From an uncultured Pedosphaera sp. (GTDB taxonomy: Bacteria; Verrucomicrobiota; Verrucomicrobiia; Limisphaerales; Pedosphaeraceae), in assembly GCA_903918755.1 (NCBI GenBank), contig CAIXFN010000034.1:156618-220617 (forward strand): a DNA stretch of 64,000 bases, written 5' to 3'. Shown here piece after piece: positions 21,080 through 42,301 of this stretch. The notes beneath the pieces were generated by a model that was not told the origin of the DNA, did not search any database, and saw nothing but the letters and a program-made list of their open reading frames with translations. Positions within the stretch are counted from its first letter, which is position 1; each line of letters starts with the position of its first letter. The position numbers and the translations under genes are program-made.

Positions 21080-22903
21080 ATGGCGCGCTATTCACGCAAT
21101 GATCAGGCCGGAGTGGAACTCCCCAAAGCCAAGCTAAACCGGGAATCCCTCGGCCAGGCTTTGGAGTTGTTCAAATATCTGCGACCGTACCGCGCCCGGT
21201 TCGGCGCGGCGCTGCTCGCGCTCATGGCCGGCAGCGTGCTCAGTCTGGCGTTCCCCTACCTGGCCGGAAGGATCATCGACGGCGTGATGCCCACGGCGGG
21301 AGCCGGCAGCGGACATCTCGTGGGAGCGGACCGCACCGCCCTGCTGCTGGTGGGGATTCTCGCCCTGCAGGCGGGATTTTCCTATTTCCAGGCGCTTTCC
21401 CTGGCGACTGCGGGACAACGCTGCCTGGTCGATTTGCGGCGGGACACCTATGCCCGTCTGATTTCCCTCCCGATGTCCTTTTTCGCCCAACGCCGCGTCG
21501 GGGAACTTGCGAGCCGGCTTTCCGCCGACTTGATCCAGATGGAGGACACATTGACGACCATCCTGCCCCAGTTTCTGCGCCAATCCATTTTGCTGATCGG
21601 CGGCATCGGATTGATCGCCGCCACGTCCCTCAAACTGACGGGCGTCATGCTCGCCAGCCTGCCGGTCGTGATCGCCATCGCGGTGGTATTCGGTCGCCGG
21701 ACCCGCAAGATCTGGCGCGAAGCCCAGGACCGGCTGGCCGACACCGCCACCATCGTGGAGGAAACCCTGCAAGGCATCGTGAACGTAAAGGCCTTCGCCA
21801 ATGAGACCTATGAACTCCAACGCTACCACGAGGGGTTGGGCAAATTCCTGACCATCACCCTGCGCGGCGCCCGCCTCCGGGCGGCCTTCGTCTCGTTCAT
21901 CATCTTCGCGCTGTTCGGTTGCATCGTTCTCGTGCTCTGGTCCGGCGCCCACATGCTGGAACGGGGCGAGATCACGATGGGCGGACTCACCCGCTTCGGC
22001 CTCTGCACCACCTTTGTGGCCGGCGCCATGGGCCAGTTCGCGGAACTCTACAGTCAGCTCCAAAAAGCCATCGGGGCCACCCAGCGCGTGCGCGAATTAC
22101 TACGGGAACCGGTTGAAGTCGAAACCCACCTTGGCCCGCCCGCCCCCTCCACCCTGCCCCGCCTCAAAGGCGAAGTGGCCTTTGAAAACGTTTCCTTCAC
22201 CTACCCCTCGCGCACGGGTGTCGAGGTGCTCCATGAGGTAACCCTGGCGGCGGCACCTGGCCAGCGGATCGCGCTGGTCGGTCCCAGTGGCGCTGGCAAA
22301 TCCACCCTCATCTCCCTCCTGCTCCGACTTTACGACCCGACCTCCGGCCGGCTCCTCATCGACGGCCGCGACGCCCGGGATTACCCTCTCACCGAACTAC
22401 GCGGCCAGATGTCGATGGTGCCGCAGGAAGTGCTGCTCTTCGGCGGCAGCATCGCGGAAAACATCGCCTACGGCAAACCCGGGGCCAATCAGGCGGAAAT
22501 AGAACAAGCCGCGCGACAAGCCAACGCCCATGATTTCATCACGAAGTTCCCCGAGGGCTACGCCACGCTGGTGGGCGACCGCGGCATCAAACTCTCCGGT
22601 GGCCAGCGCCAACGCGTTGCCATCGCCCGGGCCATCCTCAAGAACCCCGCCATCCTCATCCTGGACGAGGCCACCAGCGCCCTCGATTCCGAGAGCGAAG
22701 GCCTGATTCAACAAGCCCTGGAAACCTTGATGCGCGGCCGCACCTCCTTCATCATCGCCCACCGCCTCGCCACCGTGCGCCACGTGGACCGCATCATCGT
22801 TATCGCCGACGGCCGCGTCGTCGAATCCGGCACCCACGAAGAGCTTCAGGCACTGGAGGCCGGCGTCTACCGCCGACTGGCTGCCTTGCAATTCCGGGAT
22901 TGA
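21080..22903 (+). CDS. ABC exporter, fused permease + ATPase (MsbA-like)
   Basis: ORF 21038..22903; start probably the M at 21080. Six-TM exporter domain followed by Walker A (GPSGAGKST), signature LSGGQRQRVAIARA and Walker B ILILDEATSALD. Confidence 0.85.
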   Translation: MARYSRNDQAGVELPKAKLNRESLGQALELFKYLRPYRARFGAALLALMAGSVLSLAFPYLAGRIIDGVMPTAGAGSGHLVGADRTALLLVGILALQAGFSYFQALSLATAGQRCLVDLRRDTYARLISLPMSFFAQRRVGELASRLSADLIQMEDTLTTILPQFLRQSILLIGGIGLIAATSLKLTGVMLASLPVVIAIAVVFGRRTRKIWREAQDRLADTATIVEETLQGIVNVKAFANETYELQRYHEGLGKFLTITLRGARLRAAFVSFIIFALFGCIVLVLWSGAHMLERGEITMGGLTRFGLCTTFVAGAMGQFAELYSQLQKAIGATQRVRELLREPVEVETHLGPPAPSTLPRLKGEVAFENVSFTYPSRTGVEVLHEVTLAAAPGQRIALVGPSGAGKSTLISLLLRLYDPTSGRLLIDGRDARDYPLTELRGQMSMVPQEVLLFGGSIAENIAYGKPGANQAEIEQAARQANAHDFITKFPEGYATLVGDRGIKLSGGQRQRVAIARAILKNPAILILDEATSALDSESEGLIQQALETLMRGRTSFIIAHRLATVRHVDRIIVIADGRVVESGTHEELQALEAGVYRRLAALQFRD

Positions 22904-22953
22904 TTTCGGCCCGGTATCGCAACCGTTGGAACGCCCGAACAATTCATTATCTG

Positions 22954-23307
22954 TCAAACGACTATTCGAATTGCGGAGCGGTCCAATTCGACAAGTGAAT
23001 TGCTTTCTAAGGCTTCGATTACCGCCGGAAGGTGCTTCTCAAACAAATCGAGAAAATCGCGTATTCGCATGTTTCCGGTGCGGATTAGGAGCAATTTTGG
23101 GGGGCGCCCAGAAAGCAGGTGCGAATAATAGAAATCAGTGTCTTTGGAAACGAGAACGCGGTGTTGCCGTAGCGCGACCTGAATGAGTTCGCCGTCGGGA
23201 GTGCGGTTTTGATCCGGTAGTTCCAACGTATGGATGGCATCATGCCCTTCCTGACGAAGAAGCCGGCAAAGTGAGGGCGGCAGATGGGCATCCACCAGGA
23301 ATTTCAT
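22954..23307 (-). CDS. DUF5615 (PIN-like) protein, putative toxin of a DUF433/DUF5615 pair
   Basis: 117 aa, MKFLVDAHLPPSLCRLLRQEGHDA..., characteristic of DUF5615. Start overlaps the stop of the DUF433 gene (ATGA). Confidence 0.7.
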   Translation of the reverse strand: MKFLVDAHLPPSLCRLLRQEGHDAIHTLELPDQNRTPDGELIQVALRQHRVLVSKDTDFYYSHLLSGRPPKLLLIRTGNMRIRDFLDLFEKHLPAVIEALESNSLVELDRSAIRIVV

Positions 23308-23537
23308 GCCATTACCAAATGGCGGCTCTTGAGCTTGATCGACTGGGCAGCGAATTCAATGCATGCCAGCAAATCTTCCAGTTCCAAGTCCGGGAACTCA
23401 GCCAGCACCTCTTCAAACCGATTACCGCCCGCCAAGTACTCGAGCAAAGATTCCACTGGATACCGCAATCCGCGGATGACCGGTTTGCCGTGGCAAATCA
23501 GGGGATCAATCGTGATGCGTTCGAGAAGCGTATTCAC
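23304..23537 (-). CDS. DUF433 domain protein, putative antitoxin partner
   Basis: 77 aa, ITIDPLICHGKPVIRGLRYPVESLLEYLAGG..., typical DUF433. Positioned upstream of, and overlapping, the DUF5615 gene. Confidence 0.7.
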   Translation of the reverse strand: MNTLLERITIDPLICHGKPVIRGLRYPVESLLEYLAGGNRFEEVLAEFPDLELEDLLACIEFAAQSIKLKSRHLVMA

Positions 23538-23693
23538 TATTGCATTCTTCCCTTCCTGCTTCCGCCTGTCAAGCTGGGCATCAGCCCTTTGCCAAGGGCT
23601 GTAGGCCCGTCATTCCTCAGCCTGAGGCAAAGCGTCCCCCGCGTCGCCCCAGGAAACATCCGCCCCCATGTCATCCCCAAGCGTTGAAAGTGC

Positions 23694-24368
23694 GAAACTG
23701 GGTTAAGTTTGTATAACCTGGACTCGGGCGGGAAGACAGGGGATGGATTGACCACAGATTACCGGGAGAGCACAGATGGGAACTGCTCCAATGGTGAACG
23801 ACGCTGGGGAGGTGCTGTTCGGAAACAACACGAATCGAAACTGGATTAACTGTCCGGAACCTGGACTGCGCAGAAACACCGGAGATGGATTGGCCGCGCA
23901 CAATGAACGAAAGCGAACCGCCAGAAACAAGATCTGCCCGAGATTTTGGCCGCCAAAATGCGCACAAGCCACAAAAGGGGACCGGAAGGCCGCGCCGCCT
24001 CTCAATTGCAGCAGCCGACGTCCGCCTCCCATCCAGATAATCGTGTTCGTCCTGTCCTACGCTGCATAGCTTCCAGCGACGCACGGGTCCCAAGAACGGC
24101 TACACCGAGACAATTTAGACAGTATTAACAGGATTGAGCAGGATGGCCCCGAACAAAAGCCCGGCGGTTCAGCTGACGTCTGCCTCCCATCCGGCCTGCC
24201 CTGCATAGCCCTTTGGGCGACGCGGGGGTAATCCTGTTCATCCTGTCCTGAAAACGGATATCGGACATTCCGCAAAATCCTGTCTGCGGACGAAACCGGC
24301 AAAATGCAAAGCGTCCGGAACCAACTCGAAACTGGATTAAGTGTCCGGATCCTGGACTCTTCGAACTC
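23694..24368. repeat. Non-coding repeat cluster: three copies of a ~35-bp element (gaaactggRttaaSt...cctggact) plus a duplicated, rearranged ~120-bp segment carrying atcctgt/acaggat motifs
   Basis: Copies of the ~35-bp element begin at about 23694, 23834 and 24329. Segments 24013-24080 and 24176-24250 share gcctcccatcc...ctgcatagc...gcgacgc and aatcctgttcatcctgtcctg / ataatcgtgttcgtcctgtcctac. Inverted partner aacaggattgagcaggatgg is near 24105. Track ORFs here look spurious. Confidence 0.55.
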
Positions 24369-24885
24369 AGACCTTGAGGGCATCCATTCCGGTGACGCTT
24401 GATGAAAAGGGTGAGCAATCAAGATTATCGATAACGGCGCAGGCTCCATAACGGGGTCGGTTTGAAGTAGCGGGCGGGCGGGGGCGGTGGGCCGCGTGCC
24501 GGTTGGGACGGCACGCGGCGATGACCACCGACGGGCAACTGCCCGGGCTCATCCGCCGGGCAAACGCAGACACACTAATATGTCAAAGAGCAGGCCGGGC
24601 GGAACTTTCATTCCGACGGGCCAAAATTCAGGCATTACCGGGTGACGGCTCGCCAGGTGCCGAGCTCGGATCGACTCCCATCCTTTTTTAGCACAGGTTG
24701 GGGCGATTCGAATTCCTACGGGAGGAATTTAGTGGCATTTGGTTGGTAACGGTGCGTTCTGTTTGCCATTACACTGCTTTTGTGTTTGTTTGTATCGAGA
24801 TCATGAGACTGCGGCCAATCAGGCGCTACCGCAAACGCCGACGCGACTTTTGGCCCCGTCGCTGAGCTTGGGTCGTTAGGCGGCT

Positions 24886-25227
24886 ATGGCACACACCGAA
24901 AATCAGACTTGGGTGGTCGAAAGAGGCGGCGAAGTCGTCGAAAAGATGGCGCATGCTGGTGGGGCCAGCTTGAGCGACTGGGAACGCTTGGTTTATTGTC
25001 TCTGGGTCACGGATTATATGCTGCGAAACGCCGGCGACTTTGCGAACGCCGAGGTGATGTATCCTGATTTCCAGACCGATGCCGCGAGACTCGCCAAGAG
25101 TCTGGGTTTAGCGGTGACACACACAACCTTTTCATTGTCACGCCGCAAGCTCCAGCGAGAATATTTCAACCGTTTCGAGGCCATTTGCGACGAGATTAAG
25201 AAAGCAGAGCATGACGTTGACGCCTGA
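24886..25227 (+). CDS. Cassette ORF 1, hypothetical protein (113 aa)
   Basis: ATG 5 nt after the GTTAGGC core. No recognisable domain. Confidence 0.45.
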   Translation: MAHTENQTWVVERGGEVVEKMAHAGGASLSDWERLVYCLWVTDYMLRNAGDFANAEVMYPDFQTDAARLAKSLGLAVTHTTFSLSRRKLQREYFNRFEAICDEIKKAEHDVDA

Positions 25228-25320
25228 CAAGTCGCTGGCGCGAAACGCCATCCGCGCAATCGCCTCCGCTACGCGAGCCGGGCGTGTTTCCGCGTGCCTC
25301 AGCTTGGGGCGTTCGCCGTC
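25228..25320 (+). other. attC-like site candidate (between cassette ORFs 1 and 2)
   Basis: Ends pair as gcgcGAAACgcc ... ggcGTTCgcc. 3' core GTTCGCC lies 20 nt before the ATG. Confidence 0.3.
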
Positions 25321-25336
25321 ATTCAAACCATCAGTT

Positions 25337-25747
25337 ATGATGAAATCGCTTAGTTCTCTTTTGGCAGCAGGGATGTTGCTTTGCAATGTTGTCGCGGCAG
25401 CAGCGTCAGAGTATGCAAAACCATTCCCGATCGTTGGCATTCCAAAAGGCGCATCAGCGGAGCAGCGAGCGAAAGCCGAGAAGTTGGGACGAGAGTTTGG
25501 CATCACCGTCAGCGTGCTCGAAACAAATCCGGTTTGCTGTGTTTGGTTGGAACTGCGGGCCTGGCGGCCGAATCCCGGCACTGACGGTTATGTCATCATC
25601 CATCAGGCTGGCGGAACATTGATCACCGCATCGAGTCAGCAGCAGCTTGATGCAGCGGTGGAGCGGTTCATCAAGAGTTCGCGGTTGCGCGACGGCAAGC
25701 GCGAAGCTCCCCTCGGCTTGATGACAAGTTACGAGGTTATCAAATGA
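25337..25747 (+). CDS. Cassette ORF 2, small secreted hypothetical protein
   Basis: Track ORF 25211..25747. The upstream part overlaps the attC-like spacer, so the start is placed at ATGATG 25337 (MMKSLSSLLAAGMLLCNVVAAAAS = signal peptide). Confidence 0.45.
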   Translation: MMKSLSSLLAAGMLLCNVVAAAASEYAKPFPIVGIPKGASAEQRAKAEKLGREFGITVSVLETNPVCCVWLELRAWRPNPGTDGYVIIHQAGGTLITASSQQQLDAAVERFIKSSRLRDGKREAPLGLMTSYEVIK

Positions 25748-25871
25748 CCATGACCGCCGCCCATGCACTCTACCGAACCCGGTCCTCGCGCTCCGGTTGC
25801 CATCCAGACGTCCCGTCCGTCCTCCGCAGAAGCAGTGCTTCGCAGGCTGGACGGCCCGGGTCGCTAGTCGA
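25748..25871 (+). other. attC-like site candidate (between cassette ORFs 2 and 3)
   Basis: Ends pair as ctaccgaacccgg ... cccgggtcgctag. 3' core-like GCTAGTC abuts the ATG. Confidence 0.3.
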
Positions 25872-26228
25872 ATGAAAGCATTCGCCATTTTCATTTGCCC
25901 ATTTCTGGGTGTGGTCATTTCCGCGGTTGTGACCTTCGGAGCGTGGTATGTTCAGATCGAGCCAAGAGCCTTTCAGTGTTGGGATGGCCCGGCGATAGAT
26001 GCGTATTGGGAACCGATTGAGGTTCACGAAGGAGCCGGAGACAAGATTTCCGCCGAATGGACTTGGGAGGAGATCAAGACCTGGCGAACGATTTATCTTT
26101 TGGCATTCTTTGGCATTTGGGTCGCGAGTTCAGCGGGCATTTACCGACAGATTTCTCGCCAATCACAGCGACCTGACACAGCGCTAGAGCCAACCGGCTC
26201 CGCGCCGGTCAGTTTGACGAAGCCATGA
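25872..26228 (+). CDS. Cassette ORF 3, small membrane protein
   Basis: Start placed at ATG 25872 directly after the core-like motif (MKAFAIFICPFLGVVISAVVTFGAWY...). Two predicted TM segments. Confidence 0.45.
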   Translation: MKAFAIFICPFLGVVISAVVTFGAWYVQIEPRAFQCWDGPAIDAYWEPIEVHEGAGDKISAEWTWEEIKTWRTIYLLAFFGIWVASSAGIYRQISRQSQRPDTALEPTGSAPVSLTKP

Positions 26229-26300
26229 AATGAAATTGACATCATCGCATTTTTGGGTCCCGCTCCATTGCCGCTGGCTTAGCCCTTGGTCGTTAACCCC
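26229..26300 (+). other. attC-like site candidate (between cassette ORFs 3 and 4)
   Basis: 3' end cccttggtcGTTAACCcc is directly followed by the ATG. The 5' arm is less clear. Confidence 0.25.
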
Positions 26301-26696
26301 ATGAGTGCACAGCTTCTAACACAGCGAGCCAACGCCATGATTCCAGGCTACGAAGCCATGTTTGCCCGGCGTGGCGACATCACTCCCACTGACCCGCTCC
26401 AGTTTCACCCTTTTCACCTAGCACGTTATTGGAGTCGGTCGATTGCTTTTTCCCGAAAGTTCTCGCAACCGAAGCGCTGCATTGAGGGCGATTTGGGCAC
26501 ATGCATTCAGGTTGGCTCGGAGTTTGCGCACAAATTAATTGACTCGAATTCTCCGATCTACGCACGATTGCAGGACTATTGGGCGCAGACACAGGCAGTG
26601 CTTCACCGACGCCCGGTCACCATGGCGGCAGTCGAGGCTGCGTCTCAGGCCTTTAATGATTGCGTTGCTGAGTTGAAGTATGATCCTTGGCGCTAA
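26301..26696 (+). CDS. Cassette ORF 4, hypothetical protein
   Basis: ATG 26301 two nt after GTTAACC (the track lists a TTG start at 26286). No recognisable domain. Confidence 0.45.
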   Translation: MSAQLLTQRANAMIPGYEAMFARRGDITPTDPLQFHPFHLARYWSRSIAFSRKFSQPKRCIEGDLGTCIQVGSEFAHKLIDSNSPIYARLQDYWAQTQAVLHRRPVTMAAVEAASQAFNDCVAELKYDPWR

Positions 26697-26784
26697 CCGT
26701 GCGCTGCGGGAAACCCAGCCATCGGGTCGAGGTTGCAATCGAGCGCCCTCGCGGGTCGCGTCGCTGAGCTTGTCTCGTTCGGCC
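26697..26784 (+). other. attC-like site candidate (between cassette ORFs 4 and 5)
   Basis: Begins ccgtgcgctgcggg after the ggcgcTAA stop context and ends gtcgctgagcttgtctcGTTCGGCc. It shares the 14-mer cgtcgctgagcttg with the site upstream of ORF 1. Confidence 0.3.
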
Positions 26785-26797
26785 TACTGCACCCCAC

Positions 26798-27148
26798 TTG
26801 AATAAGAAAATTTCAACTGGCCTTGCGGCACTGATCGTCGGTGGCCTCTTGGTCGCGTTCGGATGTTGGGCTTATTTTGGCGATACGTCGTTGCAACAAG
26901 CGCGGCGCATGGCACTCGCCCGGGAGCACCTGCCCGCGATTGCGAGCGCCATTTCTGCCCATCCAGAGTTTCGCGACGTACAAGTTGGTGTCGGGACGGC
27001 TGCTGGCGGTTGTTTTCTCATCGTCGGGTTGGTCGAAACCGAAAGGAGTCTTGCGGAATTGCAGCGAGTCATTGCCGCCCAGCAGCCGCCCGTCGCAGTA
27101 GTATATCAGCTCAAAGTCTTAGCGCGGTATTCTGATCCTAAACCGTAG
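26798..27148 (+). CDS. Cassette ORF 5, small membrane-anchored hypothetical protein
   Basis: TTG start 14 nt after the GTTCGGC motif. N-terminal TM segment LAALIVGGLLVAFGCWAYF. Confidence 0.4.
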   Translation: MNKKISTGLAALIVGGLLVAFGCWAYFGDTSLQQARRMALAREHLPAIASAISAHPEFRDVQVGVGTAAGGCFLIVGLVETERSLAELQRVIAAQQPPVAVVYQLKVLARYSDPKP

Positions 27149-27613
27149 GCCCATCCACGCGCTCCAGCGCACGCAGCGGGAGTGACAAGGGGGCAGCCCC
27201 GACTATCGGTCAATTGCAACTTCTTACGCAAAATCTTTGTCTTTCCGATGGGCGAGGTCTGCCTGCTCCATGAATACCTCCTCATCGTCTCCCGCGGCAA
27301 TCGCGGCGCGTCCCGCGCCTGCTTCAGCGGCCTTTCTTCGCGACCTTTGCGACCTTCTGTTCGAACTCCCTTGAATTGCGTCCTCCACTCCTTTACCGCA
27401 GGCCATCACCCAAAGGCGGCTCATGAGCTTGAGGGACTTCGTGGCGCATTTCGTTCCCCGAACGGCGATAATACCCAGAGTCCAAAACCAAAAAGGCCGA
27501 TGCCCACCAAAGGCGGATAACAGAACATTTGTTATTTCAGCCGCAAGAGCGCATTTCCGGGGAGGCGCTTTGCCGGTTGTTATTTAGGGACCGGATTTTG
27601 ACGTTTTGACAAA

Positions 27614-29050
27614 TTAGTGATGAGTCAACCGGAAGAACATTTGTTTGCCCGTGATTGCATTGGTCACCGCATGCTGTCCGCTGATAGTGGTCCAGGTAAT
27701 GGGTGGAGCGAGGCTGATAGCGGATTGCAGACTGAAGCCGGAAACACTGGTTGGCCAGCTCACGATGACTTTGGTTCCCATTTGCGCGATTTCGAGCGGC
27801 GGCGGAACCAGCAGGCTGAACACCGTGCCAAAGCCCTCCAGGCCGCCGGCACTGGCGGTCCCATAGAGCACACCGCCGGATTCGATTAACCCGCCGCTGG
27901 GATGCGCCCCGTCGGCATTGGTACCCGCGACATTGTTCGCGGCGGTGAATTGATACAAAACGCTAAAACCGGTACCGTCAAGATTCAGGCGAAACACGGT
28001 GCCATTGCCAAATTGTCCGCCATTCACGGCGGTCCCATAAAGCGCGTTGCCATAAAGCACGAGACCAGACTGCGGATTAGCGCCATCGCGGTTGGTTTGT
28101 AAAACTCCCGCCAGACCGCTGAATTGATGCAGCGGCGCGAAACCCGAACCGTCCGTGTTGATGGCAAAAACCGTGCCGCACGCGTTGCTGCCACCGCTAC
28201 TGGCCGTGCCGTAGAGCGTGTTGCCCACGCGAATCAGCGCGCCCAAGGGATTCGCGCCATCGCTATTGGTGTAGGGATATCCTCCCTGATAACTAAAACT
28301 GTAAAGGTTGGTGAAGCCAACGCCGTTGGTGCTGACTTTAAAGAGAGTGCCCACGGCATTGGCTCCGCCGCTTGCGGTCGAACCGAAAAGCATCCCGCCT
28401 GAAAACAGCAAGGGCGAGGTGGGATTTTGCCCATCACGGAACGTAAAATTGTGCAAGTTGGTGAAACTCCCGCCGTTGGTGTTGAGCGAAAAAATTGTGC
28501 CCCAACCGTTTATGCCACCTCCTTGAGCCAGACCGTATAAGGTATTTCCGTCAAGGACGAAGCCCGCCTCCGGATAAGCGCCCGGTCCGTTGGGGTAGGG
28601 AAAATCTCCGCCCAGGGCGGGAAAACTAAAAAGATTGGTCATACTGGCGCCATTGGTGCCAATCCCAAAGATGGTTCCATAGTTCGAACTGCCGCCGAAA
28701 AGCGCCGGGCCATAAAGCATTTTGCCAGCCAGCGTCAGACCGCCATCCAATTGGCCGCCGTCCGGGCCATTGGTGAAAACGCGCAGGGTCGAGTATCCGG
28801 AACCGTCTGGATTCACTTTAAACACGGAGCCGCTGCCGGTGACATAACCGTTCTCTCCGCCGGTCTTGGTGGTGCCATAGAGCACGCCGCCGGACAGGAC
28901 CAAACTCGCAGCCGGATTGATGCCGTTGGTGTAGGCAAAACCATGCAGGGTGGCAAACTCCACGGTTTGTGCGGACGCTGGCAGGCAGTTCAGCCAGAGG
29001 GCCACCAGGAAGCAACTTATCGGCCGACGAAGGGGTTCTGTTTTCATCAT
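27614..29050 (-). CDS. Gloeo_Verruco repeat protein (secreted)
   Basis: Track ORF 27614..29281; start placed at MMKTEPLRR (29050), which is followed by a signal peptide. About 12 tandem ~28-aa repeats of the form GG/GxLYGTTxxGGxxGxGTVFKL, i.e. the Gloeo_Verruco repeat, plus a C-terminal beta domain. Confidence 0.75.
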   Translation of the reverse strand: MMKTEPLRRPISCFLVALWLNCLPASAQTVEFATLHGFAYTNGINPAASLVLSGGVLYGTTKTGGENGYVTGSGSVFKVNPDGSGYSTLRVFTNGPDGGQLDGGLTLAGKMLYGPALFGGSSNYGTIFGIGTNGASMTNLFSFPALGGDFPYPNGPGAYPEAGFVLDGNTLYGLAQGGGINGWGTIFSLNTNGGSFTNLHNFTFRDGQNPTSPLLFSGGMLFGSTASGGANAVGTLFKVSTNGVGFTNLYSFSYQGGYPYTNSDGANPLGALIRVGNTLYGTASSGGSNACGTVFAINTDGSGFAPLHQFSGLAGVLQTNRDGANPQSGLVLYGNALYGTAVNGGQFGNGTVFRLNLDGTGFSVLYQFTAANNVAGTNADGAHPSGGLIESGGVLYGTASAGGLEGFGTVFSLLVPPPLEIAQMGTKVIVSWPTSVSGFSLQSAISLAPPITWTTISGQHAVTNAITGKQMFFRLTHH

Positions 29051-29378
29051 TATGATGCGGGTATGACCATGGCCCGTTCGGCAAATTGGGACAATACTCC
29101 GTTGGGCGCACCGCGCGGGGGGAAGTCTGCGGTTCACGAGCGAGGCAATGACGATGTTCTGATTCCCTGACCCAAGCCAGTTGCCCGCAGGCCACGACGC
29201 CACCGGCCGATCGCCCGCGGGCCCTGACATTTTATGTCCGGTGGCGGGCTTGCTGGCAGGTCGGCTTACCCACTGTTGCAATCCCTTTCTTTAACAACCC
29301 CTCCCTACACACACTATACCCGACCCGGGCGCAAGTGGAGCGTGATCGTCGAACCCTGGCCAAACAGAGGATGAGAAA

Positions 29379-32300
29379 TCAAGGCCAGAGCACCCGATAG
29401 AAACGCCGCACATTGTTGGTCGCTGCGGGATCGCTGAACTGGTATTGACCGGCCGGGCCTTCGATGGGCGAACCCAGCCCCGACCAATTGCTCAACGGCA
29501 GCAGCAAGTTGGTGGTGGCGAGCACCGTGAAGGGCTGGCCAGCGGTATTGGTGAAGGTGAATTTTAGCGGCCCCTTGTTCATGGTCACATTGATGAGTAG
29601 CGGGGGCGGAATGGCTATGGTGGTGAACGTCAAATCATTGCCAAAGTTTGTGCCGGTACTGTTGGTGGCCAGGCAGCGGAAATGGTAAAGCGTGCCCTGG
29701 CTCAAGGCGGTTAGAAGCGCACTGGCCGGCTGCGGGTTGATTCCGCTGCCCGCGCTGCTGGCACTGGTAGAACCGCCGTAGTTGGTGGTCGTGCCGTATT
29801 CAAACCAGGCTCCGGTGGCCAGGCCGTTGGGACTGACCAAGCCGTGCAGGTTGGCGTTAGTCGTGCCGATGAGGCTGGCCGCGAGCGTGGTCACCGTCGG
29901 AATTCCCACATTGACCAGGATGGTCGTGGCCGCGGTGTTGACTCCGTCGCTGGCATAGATCGTAAAACCGTCCACCCCGCCGTAGCCCGTGGCCGGCTGG
30001 TAGGTAAAACCGGTCGGCGTCACGTTGCCACCAGTGGAAGTCACGCTGCCGCCCGCCACGACTGAACCATGGAGCGGGGCCACCCCGAGTGTCCAGGTCA
30101 GGGTCAGCCCGAGGTTCAGATTTGATACCGCCAGCAGGGAGTTGATCGGCGTGGCGGGCGCGTTAAAGGCGACCGTCAGGCTTTGGTTGCTCGAGTTGGT
30201 AAACGCCAGCCCGGCATTGGTTCCCTTGGTAAAATACAACCCGAATATCGCCGCATTCGCCCCCGCATTCGACACCGTCAGGCTGGTGATCGACCCGGGG
30301 ACGATCACCCGATTGTTCGGCGTGCCCCCGAAGTCGCCCGTATTCACCAGAGCCCCACCTGACACCTGGGCCAGCGTAGCGTCCCCGCAGTTACTCGCCG
30401 TGACCCCGGCCAGATTTGCGCTCGTCAAAGTGTAGGCCGCTCCGTTCCTCGCAAAATGCACCTGGTCCGCCGTGCCGCCCGACCCAAACACCGTGTCCGC
30501 TTCCACGGCCTCCACCGCCGCGCCAAAACTAAACGTGTAGCTCCCCGATCCGCCCGAGAAAAAATACGGTCCGGTGTTGGGCCCGCATGGCTTGAAGATT
30601 GACACCGAGCCGATGCTCGTCACCGTTACCCCCACCCCATTGACCGTCGAACTCCCAGCCGGGTTTACCACCTGAAAATACGTCCCCGGCGTGAGGAACA
30701 GTCCGAAGAGCGCGCCGTTCGCACCCACGTTGGCCACGGTCAGGCTCGTGATCGGCCCCGGGATGATCACCCGGTTATTCGGCGTGCCCGCGTAATCACC
30801 GGTATTCACCAGATCCCCGTTCTGCGCCTGCGCCAGCGTGGCGTCCCCGCAGGTGCTCGCCGTCACTCCGGCGAGATTGGCATCAGTAATCGAATAGGCC
30901 ACGCCGTTCCGTACAAAATGCAACTGCCCCACCGTGCCCGAGGAGGCGAACACCGCATCCACCTCCACCGAACCGACTGGCGCGGAAAAATTGAACGTGA
31001 AGCTGCCCGCTCCTCCGGTGAGATAGTAAGGTGCCGTGCTGGCCCCGCAGGGACTGAAACTCGTCACCCCTCCGCTGCTCGACACGGTCACGCTCAGGCC
31101 ACCCACCACCGCGGTCCCCGCCAGGTGCGTCACCTGCCGGCTCGAGACTGGCGTCGCCGTCGTGAAAGTCAGGCCACTGCCATAGGTGGTTCCCGTACTG
31201 TTGATCGCATACGCGCGCGCATGAATCGTCGTCGCCGATGGCAGGCCCGTGACCGTAGCGCTGAACGGGCCGGTGCCACTGCCGTTCGCCACCTTGTTGT
31301 CCGCCGTCGTCGGATTGATGTTCGTGGACCATACGATGCCGCGCTCCGTCACCGCCACCCCCCCATCGGCGGTCACGCTGCCACCCAGCGTGGCCGCAGT
31401 GACGGCCACGTTAACCGGCGTCGCCGTCGTCACCGCCGGAAATCCCACATTCACCAGAATGGTCGTGGCGGCGGTGTTAACCCCGTCGCTGGCGTAGATC
31501 GTAAACCCGTCCACCCCGCCGTAGCCAGTGGCTGGCTGGTAGGTAAAGCCGGTCGGCGTCACGGTTCCGCCGGTGGCTGTAACCGCACCGCCGGCCACGA
31601 CTGATCCATGGAGCGGAGCCACCCCGAGCGTCCAGGTCAGGGACAGCCCGAGGTTCAGATTTGATACCGCCAGTAGTGCGTTGATCGACGTCGCGGTTGC
31701 GTTCAGGTCGACCGTCAGGCTCTGGTTGCTCGCGTTGGTGAACCCCAGCCCGGCATTGGTTCCCTTGGTAAAATACAACCCGAATAGCGCCGCGTTCACC
31801 CCCACATTTGATAACGTCAGGCTGGTGATCGACCCGGGGACGATCACCCGGTTGTTCGGCGTGCCTGCGTAGTCACCCGTATTCACCAGATCCCCGCCCG
31901 ACACCTGCGCCAGTGTGCCATCCCCGCAAGTGCTCGCCGTCACCCCGGCCAGATTCGCGGTCGCCAAGGCGTAGGCCGCTCCGTTCTTGGCAAAATGCAC
32001 CTGATCCGCCGTGCCGCCCGACCCGAACACCGTGTCCGCTTCCACCGCCTCCACCGCCGCTCCAAAACTAAACGTGTAGCTCCCCGCTCCGCCAGAGAAA
32101 TAATAGGGCCCGATGTTGGGCCCGCACGGCTTGAAACTAGTCACCGCGCCGCTGCTCGTCACCGTTACCCCCACCCCATTGACCGTCGAACTCCCGGCCG
32201 GGTTCACCACCTGGAAATAGGTCTCCGGCGTGAGGAACAGTCCGAAGATCGCCCCGTTCGCCCCTACATTAGCCACAGTCAGACTCGTGATTGGTCCCGG

Positions 32301-33671
32301 GATGATTACCCGGTTGTTCGGCGTGCCCGCGTAGTCACCCGTATTCACCAGATCCCCGTTCTGTGCCTGGGCCAACGTCGCGTCCCCGCACGTGCTCGCC
32401 GTCACCCCGGCCAGATTGGCATCATTAATCGCATAATCCACGCCGTTCCGCACAAAATGCAATTGCCCCGCTGTCCCAGCGGAGGCGAATACCGCATTCA
32501 CCTCCACCGCCCCGACCGGCGCGGAAAAGTTAAACGTGAAACTGGCCGGTCCGCCGGTGAAATAGTACGGTGACGTGCTGGCCCCGCAGGGAATAAAACT
32601 CGTCACGCCCCCGGTGCTCGTCACATTGACACTAATGCCGCCCACCACCGCGGTCCCCGTCAGGTGCGTCACCTGCCGGCTCGAAACCGGCGTCGCCGTC
32701 GTGAAACTGAGGTCGCTGCCATAGCTGGTTCCCGCACTGTTGATGGCATACGCGCGCACATGGATCGTCGTCCCCGCTGCGAGTCCATTGACCACGGCGC
32801 TGAATGCCCCGATGCCACTGCCATTGGCCACTTTGTTGTTCGCCGTCGTCGGATTGGCGCTCGTGGACCACACGATGCCGCGTTCCGCCACCGCCACCCC
32901 GCCATCGGCGGTCACGCTGCCACCCAAGGTGACCGCCGTGGCCGCCACGTTCACCGGCGTCGCCGTCGTCACCGTCGGCAGGGGCGGGGTGAAAGTCAAT
33001 ACGCTCCCATTGGCTGGCAGGCTGACGCCAGTATTAAAGGCGGAGTTGGCGACGTAGGACGCGGCGTTGGTCAGGGTCAGAAAATCTTTTTTGCTGTTGG
33101 CGATGCCAACCACTCCAGCGGGTGATGCGGCGTTCGTGCCGTAAACGAATTGAACGACGTTGGAACCTTCATATAATTTAATCTGCCAATTCATATGATC
33201 GGCAACCTGGTTGAAGACGCTGAAATCGCTCCATTCAATCGTGAACACCCGGCTGCCGACTGCGCCAGTGGTCTGGTAGTAGACACGCGGAGTTCCACCC
33301 CCGCCGGTCCGACCGTCACCGTCCGTCCACATGGGCATCAACCAACCACCGCCCAAGATGTTCGTGGCCGCCACGGTAAAGCTGGCCGTGTTCGTGTTTT
33401 GCAGGGACAAAACCGGGTTCGAGTTGGCCGTGCAGTTCGTGTAATTGGTCCCGCAGAACCCGAAGGTAAAACCAATCGGGATCCCGCCGGTGTGGCCCTC
33501 ATCCGCCAAAACGCCCGTTCCGCTGGCCGCAATGGCGGTGCCCGCGGCCGCAATGGTGGCGAAGGTGCCGGAGGTCCGGGCAAAAGTATAATTGGTCGCT
33601 GCGATCTGGGAAAGTCCTTCCCGGGCCAGCAAAGACAGAATCAGGAAAAGAAGCGGCGTGATTTTAAACAT
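29379..33671 (-). CDS. Giant secreted beta-rich repeat protein (~1430 aa), Thr/Gly/Ser/Asn-rich, adhesin-like
   Basis: Track ORF 29379..33713; start placed at MFKITPLLFLILSLLAREGLSQ (signal peptide) at 33671. Contains a ~510-aa unit duplicated in tandem (TATPVNVAxTAxTLGGSVTADGGVAV...). Confidence 0.7.
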   Translation of the reverse strand: MFKITPLLFLILSLLAREGLSQIAATNYTFARTSGTFATIAAAGTAIAASGTGVLADEGHTGGIPIGFTFGFCGTNYTNCTANSNPVLSLQNTNTASFTVAATNILGGGWLMPMWTDGDGRTGGGGTPRVYYQTTGAVGSRVFTIEWSDFSVFNQVADHMNWQIKLYEGSNVVQFVYGTNAASPAGVVGIANSKKDFLTLTNAASYVANSAFNTGVSLPANGSVLTFTPPLPTVTTATPVNVAATAVTLGGSVTADGGVAVAERGIVWSTSANPTTANNKVANGSGIGAFSAVVNGLAAGTTIHVRAYAINSAGTSYGSDLSFTTATPVSSRQVTHLTGTAVVGGISVNVTSTGGVTSFIPCGASTSPYYFTGGPASFTFNFSAPVGAVEVNAVFASAGTAGQLHFVRNGVDYAINDANLAGVTASTCGDATLAQAQNGDLVNTGDYAGTPNNRVIIPGPITSLTVANVGANGAIFGLFLTPETYFQVVNPAGSSTVNGVGVTVTSSGAVTSFKPCGPNIGPYYFSGGAGSYTFSFGAAVEAVEADTVFGSGGTADQVHFAKNGAAYALATANLAGVTASTCGDGTLAQVSGGDLVNTGDYAGTPNNRVIVPGSITSLTLSNVGVNAALFGLYFTKGTNAGLGFTNASNQSLTVDLNATATSINALLAVSNLNLGLSLTWTLGVAPLHGSVVAGGAVTATGGTVTPTGFTYQPATGYGGVDGFTIYASDGVNTAATTILVNVGFPAVTTATPVNVAVTAATLGGSVTADGGVAVTERGIVWSTNINPTTADNKVANGSGTGPFSATVTGLPSATTIHARAYAINSTGTTYGSGLTFTTATPVSSRQVTHLAGTAVVGGLSVTVSSSGGVTSFSPCGASTAPYYLTGGAGSFTFNFSAPVGSVEVDAVFASSGTVGQLHFVRNGVAYSITDANLAGVTASTCGDATLAQAQNGDLVNTGDYAGTPNNRVIIPGPITSLTVANVGANGALFGLFLTPGTYFQVVNPAGSSTVNGVGVTVTSIGSVSIFKPCGPNTGPYFFSGGSGSYTFSFGAAVEAVEADTVFGSGGTADQVHFARNGAAYTLTSANLAGVTASNCGDATLAQVSGGALVNTGDFGGTPNNRVIVPGSITSLTVSNAGANAAIFGLYFTKGTNAGLAFTNSSNQSLTVAFNAPATPINSLLAVSNLNLGLTLTWTLGVAPLHGSVVAGGSVTSTGGNVTPTGFTYQPATGYGGVDGFTIYASDGVNTAATTILVNVGIPTVTTLAASLIGTTNANLHGLVSPNGLATGAWFEYGTTTNYGGSTSASSAGSGINPQPASALLTALSQGTLYHFRCLATNSTGTNFGNDLTFTTIAIPPPLLINVTMNKGPLKFTFTNTAGQPFTVLATTNLLLPLSNWSGLGSPIEGPAGQYQFSDPAATNNVRRFYRVLWP
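30070..32990. repeat. Intragenic tandem duplication, 2 x ~1.5 kb, near-identical at the nucleotide level
   Basis: Long stretches are shared verbatim between about 30070-31625 and 31626-32990, e.g. gagcgtccaggtcagggNcagcccgaggttcagatttgataccgccag and ccaaaactaaacgtgtagctccccg. Confidence 0.7.
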
Positions 33672-34178
33672 ATTGCCTGACAAAGGACAGCTCCCACACG
33701 GTTTCCGGCTCACGACCAGCGTGAATCTTTTTTTGTGATTCTGTTCCTTTTCCGGCGGTTTGCAAGAACGCTCTACTACGCCTTTGGTGTTACTGGCATT
33801 AGCTTTTTTTGGTGCTTATCAAGCAATGCCCATCCATGCTCTGGCCCGGTCGCCTAGTCGAAATCTGTGCCGGTAATCCAAATAGGGGTCCGAATAGGGG
33901 TCCCGGCTATGCAACACTTTCAAAGTGTTGTTCGACGAAACAGCGCTGCAGCGCCTTTTCCCGCATCCGAATTTCCTCCACAGTTCTGAACGGCTACCAC
34001 GATTCCCTAACCCGACTCGGCACAACGAACATCGCTTTTTTGAGGGCAATTCACGTGACGAAGGCAGGAAGGTGGGCGGATGCCCCGCCGCGTGAACGCG
34101 GAACTCCGAACCTTGATTCGGGCGGGCGGTAGCGTGGGAGGAAGCGACCGTGGGCGGCGGACTGACTGAACGATAATA

Positions 34179-41149: not shown

Positions 41150-42301
41150 ACCGAATCCTCCGCCTGCTCGTTGTTTCGCGCGTCTTTTCTGCCTTGCCGG
41201 TGGCGCTCCGGGAGCGCTGGATCCAAAGTTCCTGAACTGCTGCCAGCGGCCCGGTCACTACCGGACCACCACCGGCGCCGCCGCACGAAGCGACAACGTA
41301 ACTAATTTGCGTTGGGGAGAACTTGGGAGCCGCGACATGCGGCGCCAGAGGATCGCCCTTCCAAATGCCGACGAGGTTAGCTGGCGGGCTCGGTCTTGAA
41401 AGTGACCTCGGTCCCGGTTACCCGTGACCTTGCGCCCCATCCCCGGATTGCTCCGGGGAATTTGGTTCCCCCGCGCCGGATTTCAGGAAGGAAACCCGGC
41501 TTAGGCTGCTTTGACTTCAGACAAATTACCCATCGCATCGCCGGGGGGAAAAGTCAAATGTCCCAGCTTTAAAAAACGCGGATGTCATTGTCCATTAAAC
41601 ACATACATCACATCGGGAGTCCTGAGGCGGGGAGATTGTAATCGCAGTGGCGCCCCGTGCTTCGGGCGGCTGGGGAAGGTTGATGGAGCCTCCTCCCCCC
41701 CGGCCGTCTCCGCGATTCTAAAGTGCGGAAGGGAGAAGAAGTCTGATCGGCAATCGTTGCGAGCCGCGCAAATTCGATGGGCTCAGGAGCCTGAGGCTGG
41801 CTGGTCCGCCGACCAGGCCAATCTCATCCGAGCAAAAAAAACCGGGCCAATAGGTCAGGGGGTGACCGAGAGGCCCGGGGAATGTTCGAATTGGCACAAC
41901 AGTAGGATTACGTAGATATCCGGCGAGGGTCTGTACCGAACCCAAGCCGAAACTTGGTGGACGCTGAAAGAACAATTTTTACTTGCGTCCGAAATTCAAA
42001 CTAACCGCGTAATCTTGCTGTTACTAAACCATGCGCGCTGCCGAAAGTCAACCAGAAATTTGAAGTATTAATTCAATTTCACCGACCGAAAACTTTCATT
42101 AGCCGCGTTAATCAAAGAACTGTTTTTAAGCTACCTTCATTGGATGCCAACGGCAAGTTTTTATTCAAACTTTCGCACCAATTCTGCCGTGGCTTTCCCC
42201 GACCGGGAAGTGCCAGACTCGTGATTCTGTCAAGCGGGGATTGGAGAAATATTTACCCCGGTGGCCAAATAATTCTTTGATGACCCTCCGGCCATTGTTA
42301 G

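Follow-up and report, generated by a model that had tools for sequence, protein, structure and literature searches.

A probable relic of an integron cassette array, without its integrase, in a Limisphaerales genome

Introduction

A contig of an uncultured Pedosphaera species from soil or freshwater (Verrucomicrobiota, Limisphaerales; GenBank assembly GCA_903918755.1, contig CAIXFN010000034.1) carries five small open reading frames (ORFs) in a row on one strand, each preceded by a copy of the same short element. We analyzed 64,000 nt of it (positions 156,618 to 220,617), here called the window, to which all coordinates refer unless another contig is named. An earlier, sequence-only reading had taken the locus for an integron-like array, in which the ORFs would be gene cassettes and the elements attC recombination sites, and had placed it among attC-site clusters that have no integron-integrase (CALINs). 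The locus raises two questions: is it derived from an integron, and can its sites still recombine? We find that it is very probably an integron-derived cassette array without an integrase, that is, a CALIN. The joint reading, that this CALIN has decayed and is now an integrase-less relic, is likely as well, with the loss of recombination as its softer part.

Layout of the array

The five ORFs, c1 to c5, are co-oriented, 113 to 136 amino acids long, and lie within 24886-27148:

c1, 24886..25227, plus strand: 113 amino acids, in a cassette spanning 24876-25311; conserved helical protein
c2, 25337..25747, plus strand: 136 amino acids; signal-peptide-like N terminus (by inspection)
c3, 25872..26228, plus strand: 118 amino acids; two hydrophobic segments, N-terminal region hydrophobic (by inspection)
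c4, 26301..26696, plus strand: 131 amino acids; member of a rare family
c5, 26798..27148, plus strand: 116 amino acids; TTG start; N-terminal hydrophobic segment (by inspection)

The shared element stands 2 to 19 nt 5′ of every one of them, and its copies end in the core boxes GTTAGGC (24875-24881), GTTCGCC (25311-25317), GCTAGTC (25863-25869), GTTAACC (26292-26298), and GTTCGGC (26777-26783). This confirms the observation from which the sequence-only reading started: the 18-mer GAGCTTGGGTCGTTMGGC, with up to 3 mismatches allowed, has four matches in the 64 kb against 0.13 expected, and three of the four are at core-box positions on the plus strand. Short ORFs, about one per cassette and each near the preceding core site, are the arrangement of a cassette array. 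The order is attC0-c1-attC1-c2-attC2-c3-attC3-c4-attC4-c5-attC5, beginning at 24813 with a complete but short attC0 and ending at about 27172 with a truncated attC5; the earlier limits of 24822 and 27150 are corrected accordingly. The array is lower in GC content than its flanks, as had been noticed (0.54 to 0.58 versus 0.60 to 0.66), but the low-GC zone extends from about 22750 to 29250 and so well beyond the array.

Intrinsic terminators and repetitive extragenic palindromic (REP)-like repeats were considered as identities for the spacers and rejected: we found four terminator-like sites in comparison with 4.8 expected, none of them correctly placed in a spacer, and the spacers fold like shuffled sequence. 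A promoter-like excess was likewise not found in the array.

The spacers resemble an attC family of soil integrons

A homolog of c1 lies on a soil metagenome contig (L089) on which small same-strand ORFs are parted by textbook attC sites of the pattern GCCTAAC-AAATC-GCTGCAGCC...GGCTGAGC-TCTGAWC-GTTAGGC. Scanning metagenomes with the 5′ arm CCTAACAAATCGCNGCAGCC yielded at least 120 contigs, many of them with 2 to 8 copies spaced 350 to 550 nt apart; a covariance model of the 99-nt sites (R1) finds 340 sites in the 400 kb of this set, with up to about 20 sites on a 9-kb contig. By length, the sites form classes of 93, 99, 108, and ~127 nt, which are mixed within single arrays (among L089-L209, examples of multiclass arrays are L096, L116, L132, and L164). 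When 42 sites from the 99-nt class are folded to a consensus, the R box is paired, the central spacer is unpaired, the L box carries one extrahelical base, and the inner stem shows compensatory GC-to-CG and CG-to-GC changes. The L box co-varies between classes (GCTGCAGCC/GGCTGAGC, GCTGGAGCC/GGCTCAGC, GCTGCAGGC/GCCTGAGC, and GCTGCAGCG/CGCTGAGC). The ~127-nt class also has a conserved central segment, ...TTTTGAC..CATGAAATTTGA..ATCATCATT..., to which we assign no role. The opposite polarity of the sites, which would make the ORFs antisense, was rejected because the metagenome family settles their orientation.

This family is accompanied by integrases. Contig L106 encodes a full IntI beside attC sites; the protein has both catalytic boxes and the insertion specific to IntI. 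Partial copies are present on L099, L116, L162, L165, and L182. The closest homologs of the L106 protein are annotated "integron integrase"; the named ones come from "Candidatus Udaeobacter" sp. (81%) and Chthoniobacterales (79%). Since this IntI lies beside the sites and has Verrucomicrobial relatives, the family is a genuine integrase-linked attC family, and its sequence relationships make a Verrucomicrobial origin most likely.

We built covariance models from metagenomic array sites of three length classes (R1, 99 nt; R2, 93 nt; R3, ~127 nt), using no sequence from the window, and searched the whole 64 kb with them on both strands with filters off. The top matches are attC0 to attC4, all on the plus strand and exactly in the spacers; no other position in the window reaches E<0.09 with R1, R2, or R3. 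All but attC2 match over the full length, and the two strongest are attC3 (R3, 55.4 bits, E=4.5e-13) and attC4 (R2, 49.3 bits, E=1.6e-10). Together with attC0 (R2, 30.6 bits, E=1.4e-5; R1, 20.3 bits), they score above anything in a control of 1.22 Mb of related Verrucomicrobial DNA, whose best matches have 19.6 bits (R2) and 27.8 bits (R3). Covariance models had been named by the sequence-only reading as a check on its CALIN assignment, and models built from outside sequence support that assignment in both position and strand.

R1 alone gives weak scores in the window (12 to 24 bits); the stronger matches came with separate models of the 93-nt and ~127-nt classes. With nhmmer half-site profiles, only the attC0 3′ arm is significant alone (E=3.9e-5), and in an Rfam scan attC passed neither the gathering nor an E-value threshold; only unrelated weak matches appeared.

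The best R3 match in the control is itself a lone attC-like relic (L026, 8239-8337, 27.8 to 27.9 bits), whose L box (GCCGGAGCC/GGCTCAGC) is intact and whose R box is destroyed. The relic stands 4 kb downstream of an ortholog of the window's ABC transporter in another Verrucomicrobial metagenome-assembled genome (MAG).

Individual sites

On the architecture R″(..AAC)-spacer-L″...L′-spacer-R′(GTT....), the six sites read as follows:

attC0, 24813..24881, plus strand: 69 nt; 93-nt class with a central deletion of ~24 nt; R′ GTTAGGC, R″ degenerated to GGCCAAT
attC1, 25222..25317, plus strand: 96 nt; related to the 99-nt class; R″ GCCTGAC (holds the c1 stop codon), R′ GTTCGCC
attC2, 25762..25869, plus strand: badly degraded, 93-nt class; R′ GCTAGTC; inner stem and loop recognizable
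attC3, 26171..26298, plus strand: 128 nt; ~127-nt class; R″ CCTGAC, L″ GCTAGAGCC, L′ GGCTTAGC, R′ GTTAACC
attC4, 26690..26783, plus strand: 94 nt; 93-nt class; R″ CGCTAAC (holds the c4 stop codon), L″ GCTGCGGGA, L′ CGCTGAGC, R′ GTTCGGC
attC5 remnant, 27149..27172, plus strand: 5′ arm only, GCCCATCCACGCGCTCCAGCGCAC, directly 3′ of the c5 stop codon; read from the sequence

The architecture is full in attC3 and attC4, mostly present in attC0 and attC1, and incomplete in attC2, which has no L′, and attC5, which has no 3′ arm. The closest real sites are 83% identical for attC4 (L096:4932) and 73% for attC3 (in L123). For attC1, which scores 24.3 bits with R1 (E=1.2e-3) and 18.5 bits with R3 (E=0.007), the closest is in L195 (75%); for attC0 it is L116:7351 (59 of 93 positions, 63%). 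The R″ box of attC0 carries AAT where AAC is expected, and the site marks the 3′ end of a cassette upstream that can no longer be recognized. attC2 is badly degraded: its R″/L″ arm is mutated (GCCGCCCATGCACTCTAC), it has a 37-nt insertion, and its L′ box is apparently deleted, seemingly by a deletion between two GGGTCG repeats. It matches R2 only in part (25774-25863, model positions 20 to 73 only; 17.1 bits, E=0.05) and is 66% identical to its nearest real site, in L096. The attC5 arm shares 19 of 24 positions with the 5′ arm consensus of the 93-nt class, GCCTAACCATGCGCTGCAGCGAAC; a 3′ arm cannot be recognized, and the R2 match at 27149-27253 has only 8.8 bits and is not significant. The truncated attC5 marks the right end of the array. 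In addition to the c1 and c4 stop codons falling within R″, c3 reaches 58 nt into attC3.

From these alignments, the spacers are homologous to three length classes of the one attC family that fills the soil integron arrays. Two details of the sequence-only reading change with this assignment. It had described the core boxes as a noncanonical type, whereas the sites are diverged copies of a very canonical and abundant family (GCCTAAC...GGCTGAGC...GTTAGGC), in whose real arrays the variants GTTAACC and GTTCGGC also occur. The inverted repeats that it quoted from the spacers do exist, but they belong to the inner stem of attC and not to the R″/R′ boxes.

A homology break at the crossover point

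Contig L211 shares 87.5% similarity with the window, confined to 24875-25234, and its copy of the c1 gene is 87% identical. The homology starts at GTTAGGC, 5 nt 5′ of the start codon, and the DNA upstream of this box is unrelated (GCTGAGCTTGGGTC in the window, GTCTAATACAAA in L211). The break thus falls at G|TTAGGC, the crossover point of integron recombination, which further favors the CALIN assignment; it is shown for c1 only. In L089 and L212, homologs of c1 lie between other attC-type sites. Given these contexts in L211, L212, and L089, c1 is a cassette that has entered several different arrays with its junction at the crossover.

Upstream of its c1 homolog, L211 has frameshifted C-terminal fragments of intI on the minus strand (~614-845; found by tblastn, profile E=1.3e-7). 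Positions 1-1641 of this contig are an integron remnant, with the intI fragments followed by GTCTAATACAAA and directly by GTTAGGC, an arrangement like an attI simple site, and then by the c1 homolog; a CbrC-like ORF begins 24 nt after the c1 stop codon with no attC between them. The L211 junction, GTCTAATACAAAGTTAGGC, resembles CCTAAAACAAAGTTAGGC, which we take to be the simple site of attI1.

Missing integrase and lost hairpins

No tyrosine recombinase was found in the 64 kb, in agreement with the sequence-only reading: a profile of 80 IntI proteins gave a best E of 1.9 against the six-frame translation, and tblastn of the L106 IntI against the window gave nothing. Nor was an intI pseudogene found anywhere in the window, the 1.27 kb upstream of attC0 included. 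A complete integron, with intI, attI, and the Pc promoter beside the array, was not found in the window, since intI is absent from the 64 kb and the 1.27 kb upstream of attC0 matches neither attC arrays nor IntI-linked contigs. With no integrase in 64 kb, the array is a CALIN as Cury et al. (2016; PMC4889954) define the class.

The sequence-only reading had expected the bottom strand of each spacer to fold into an attC hairpin, and here its expectation failed. When the bottom strands of the five sites are folded as single-stranded DNA, the z-scores are 0.06, 0.64, −3.0 (attC2, from an internal hairpin unrelated to the attC fold), −1.3, and 0.44. For comparison, three real sites, which form an end-to-end hairpin, reach −3.4 to −4.3. 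The imperfect attC hairpin with paired R and L boxes does not form in the minimum-energy fold of any of the five, and the R box is closed in none of them, compared to 251 of 277 distinct real sites. The window sites have 14, 12, 0, 0, and 5 arm-to-arm pairs, whereas the median of the 277 is 24, and R1 gives real sites 40 to 118 bits but window sites at most 24. In attC4, a hand count of the 23 modeled pairs gave 16 Watson-Crick pairs, 2 G-T pairs, and 5 mismatches. Since the window sites lack the attC hairpin, the array is best read as a relic, and the folding models make it fairly probable that its sites are no longer recombinogenic.

The history that we propose runs as follows. In an ancestor or donor, an IntI of the Verrucomicrobial type would have inserted promoterless circular cassettes, each with one ORF and one attC; the folded attC bottom strand would have recombined at G|TT of the core site, and repeated insertions would have built the array from attC0 to attC5. 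The array would then have been separated from its integrase, or have lost it. Without selection for recombination, the sites would have gained substitutions and indels, among them the central deletion of attC0, the insertion and L′ loss of attC2, and the truncation of attC5, and the cassettes would now be essentially fixed chromosomal genes. Some of the cassettes probably remain useful (the families of c1 and c4 are conserved), and others may be in decay.

Evidence against a relic and rival explanations

Several points weigh against reading the locus as a decayed CALIN. A minimum-energy fold is an imperfect proxy, as integrases accept sites with flaws and the hairpin is a transient structure of single strands; in such folds, the R box is also open in 26 of the 277 real sites. 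An IntI may act in trans from beyond the 64 kb searched. Taken alone, attC1 and attC2 are each only marginally significant, and it is the family-specific models, not the generic IntegronFinder model, that find at least two same-strand attC sites less than 4 kb apart. Homologs of c1 occur in ordinary, nonintegron chromosomal contexts too, and the same holds for c4, whose nearest homolog (46% identity) is flanked by grx and panC and is not part of an array; neither gene family is therefore restricted to integrons. Finally, the window can be compared with L210, a contig ~95% identical to it. Its unchanged order attC0-c1-attC1-c2, over the part it covers, speaks for a stable array and so for the relic. 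Only 1 of 165 nt differs in attC0 plus attC1, compared to 53 of 568 columns in the upstream noncoding DNA (50 substitutions and 3 gap columns), 13 of 342 nt in c1 (5 synonymous and 7 nonsynonymous codons), and 3 of 355 nt in c2. Such conservation could reflect selection on the sites, or else a recombination boundary, as c2 is also 99% identical.

A still-active CALIN, in which at least attC3 and attC4 would be excised or shuffled by an integrase elsewhere in the genome or on a mobile element, could account for this conservation of attC0 and attC1. It would also fit the R′ GTT kept in four of the five sites, the attC3 L box, which is compensated and has one bulged base, and the finding that about half of all CALINs are in replicons encoding IntI (Cury et al., 2016; PMC4889954). 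We nonetheless think it unlikely: an end-to-end hairpin, seen in 91% of real sites, is formed by none of the window's five, attC4 has the mismatches and G-T pairs counted above, attC2 is without its L′ box and attC5 without its 3′ arm, no IntI lies within 64 kb, and the layout is the same in L210. Another explanation is an ordinary operon of small genes whose spacers share a regulatory element, terminator, or REP-like repeat; in its favor are spacers that fold no better than shuffled sequence and homologs of c1 and c4 in ordinary contexts. That explanation is close to refuted and, to us, highly improbable. It leaves unexplained the full-length homology of attC3 and attC4 to sites of IntI-linked arrays (E values of 1e-10 to 1e-13), the L211 homology break at G|TTAGGC, and the lack of any terminator- or promoter-like excess. 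In addition, 80 loci around orthologs of the neighboring ABC transporter (itself 83 to 84% identical to Limisphaerales and Pedosphaera-like MAG proteins of the Verrucomicrobiota) share none of its flanking genes, the cassette ORFs, or the motif, so that over this evolutionary distance the locus is not conserved as an operon. An assembly or binning artifact, with reads of a soil integron wrongly joined to a Limisphaerales contig, comes to mind because most of the related arrays are on short metagenome contigs, but we give it next to no credence. At least 12 contigs, drawn from several samples and including one of 186 kb, carry the locus with its flanks (the ABC transporter, a toxin-antitoxin-like pair, and large repeat proteins), which argues against misassembly; two contigs from other projects (L001 and L002) are 100% identical to the window; and the window sites are diverged, not identical, copies of the soil family. 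We thus retain the decayed CALIN as the preferred reading.

Cassette proteins

As the sequence-only reading had stated, the ORFs encode no recognizable domains: searches of Pfam, NCBIfam, and PADLOC gave no meaningful family match for any of c1 to c5. The c1 protein has 143 homologs at 60 to 94% identity. Its AlphaFold2 model is all-helical with a pLDDT (predicted local distance difference test) score of 92, and comparison of this model with the PDB found no significant match (best E=0.88); a look-up of the exact protein matched only contigs of the same strain. c1 is thus a widespread, confidently folded helical protein without an assigned function that travels as a cassette. The c4 family is rare: in a set of 1.84 billion proteins it has only 26 representative clusters. 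The c2 protein is 98% identical in L210.

Surroundings of the array

To the left of the array lies the toxin-antitoxin (TA)-like pair that the sequence-only reading had named, and Pfam bears out both members:

DUF433/DUF5615 toxin-antitoxin-like pair, 22954..23537, minus strand: Pfam E=4e-23 (DUF433) and 3e-25 (DUF5615)

The pair lies 1.3 kb left of the first site, on the strand opposite to the array; it has no flanking attC, and R1, R2, and R3 have no match nearby. A DUF433 homolog 42% identical to that of the window occurs as a cassette on an attC-bearing metagenome contig (L111, 1176-1352), so this antitoxin family can be cassette borne. Just upstream of the DUF433 start codon, on the minus strand, the Acido-Lenti-1 RNA motif matches weakly (23595-23627; 26.1 bits, below the gathering score of 37, E=0.006), and 23572-23544 on that strand is a sigma-70-like promoter match.

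The 1.27 kb between the pair and attC0 (23538-24812) has no convincing ORF and is 90.7% identical in L210. It contains repeats of its own: one of 33 nt occurs at 23692, 23835, and 24326 (with ≤3 mismatches there are two copies, where none is expected), and another, of 23 nt, occurs at 24012 and 24170. A 40-nt direct repeat brackets the array (23305-23344 and 27399-27438; 33 of 40 positions identical, E=1.3e-5), with one copy across the DUF433/DUF5615 gene junction and the other in noncoding DNA 3′ of c5. A second TA module may have left this repeat behind; similarity between the copies at the protein level was not found.

Directly right of the array, on the minus strand, are genes for two repeat-rich, apparently secreted proteins of 555 amino acids (27614-29281) and 1,444 amino acids (29379-33713); the former has no Pfam match. 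Farther right, also on the minus strand, 41351-41517 is a full-length match to the cyclic di-AMP riboswitch (ydaO/yuaA leader, RF00379; 63.3 bits, with a gathering score of 38).

Relation to known integrons and significance

The sequence-only reading had held that integron-like arrays are poorly described in the Planctomycetes-Verrucomicrobia-Chlamydiae group. That view needs correction: integrons had already been reported in Verrucomicrobia with IntegronFinder (Cury et al., 2016; PMC4889954), and NCBI annotates their integrases. CALINs were defined in the same work as a common class. The window resembles them in its same-strand attC sites without a nearby intI, in its about five cassettes, which is the average CALIN size, in cassettes to which no function is assigned and which include no resistance genes, and in having no adjoining intI pseudogene, as is the case for 95% of CALINs (PMC4889954). 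It differs in that family-specific models were needed to find its sites, and in its lost hairpin complementarity and two truncated or rearranged sites, which make it a decayed array, not a plainly mobilizable one.

With the sedentary chromosomal integrons of soil Verrucomicrobiota (L096, L106, L116, L132, and L164), the array shares its attC family, the mixture of 93-, 99-, and ~127-nt classes within an array, small ORFs without domains, stop codons within R″, and the c1 family, which is a cassette there too. Those integrons, however, have near-perfect hairpins (R1 scores of 40 to 118 bits and z-scores of about −4), some with an adjacent intI, whereas the window belongs to Limisphaerales, its sites score 17 to 55 bits with the best model, they do not fold, and there is no integrase. 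The first core box, GTTAGGC, and the crossover at G|TT are those of a class 1 integron (core GTTRRRY); unlike a class 1 integron, the window has no attI, Pc promoter, intI, or resistance cassettes. The locus is an ordinary case within a class already known and not a new system, and nothing here alters present knowledge of how integrons work.

What the locus offers is an example of cassette-array decay in which attC homology is still detectable at E values of 1e-10 to 1e-13 after the hairpin has been lost. As homology outlasts the hairpin, structure-aware and sequence-based detectors can disagree on relics. It also ties a Limisphaerales genome to an abundant soil attC family whose integrases resemble those of "Ca. 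Udaeobacter" and Chthoniobacterales; the shared family suggests cassette flow between Verrucomicrobial orders. A more far-reaching possibility, which we regard as doubtful, is that the array is alive, with a Verrucomicrobial-type integrase elsewhere in the Limisphaerales genome mobilizing at least the cassettes bounded by attC3 and attC4. If so, Chthoniobacterales/Udaeobacter and Limisphaerales would exchange an active cassette pool across soil and freshwater; such a pool shared between orders is little described, although the attC family is extremely abundant in metagenomes.

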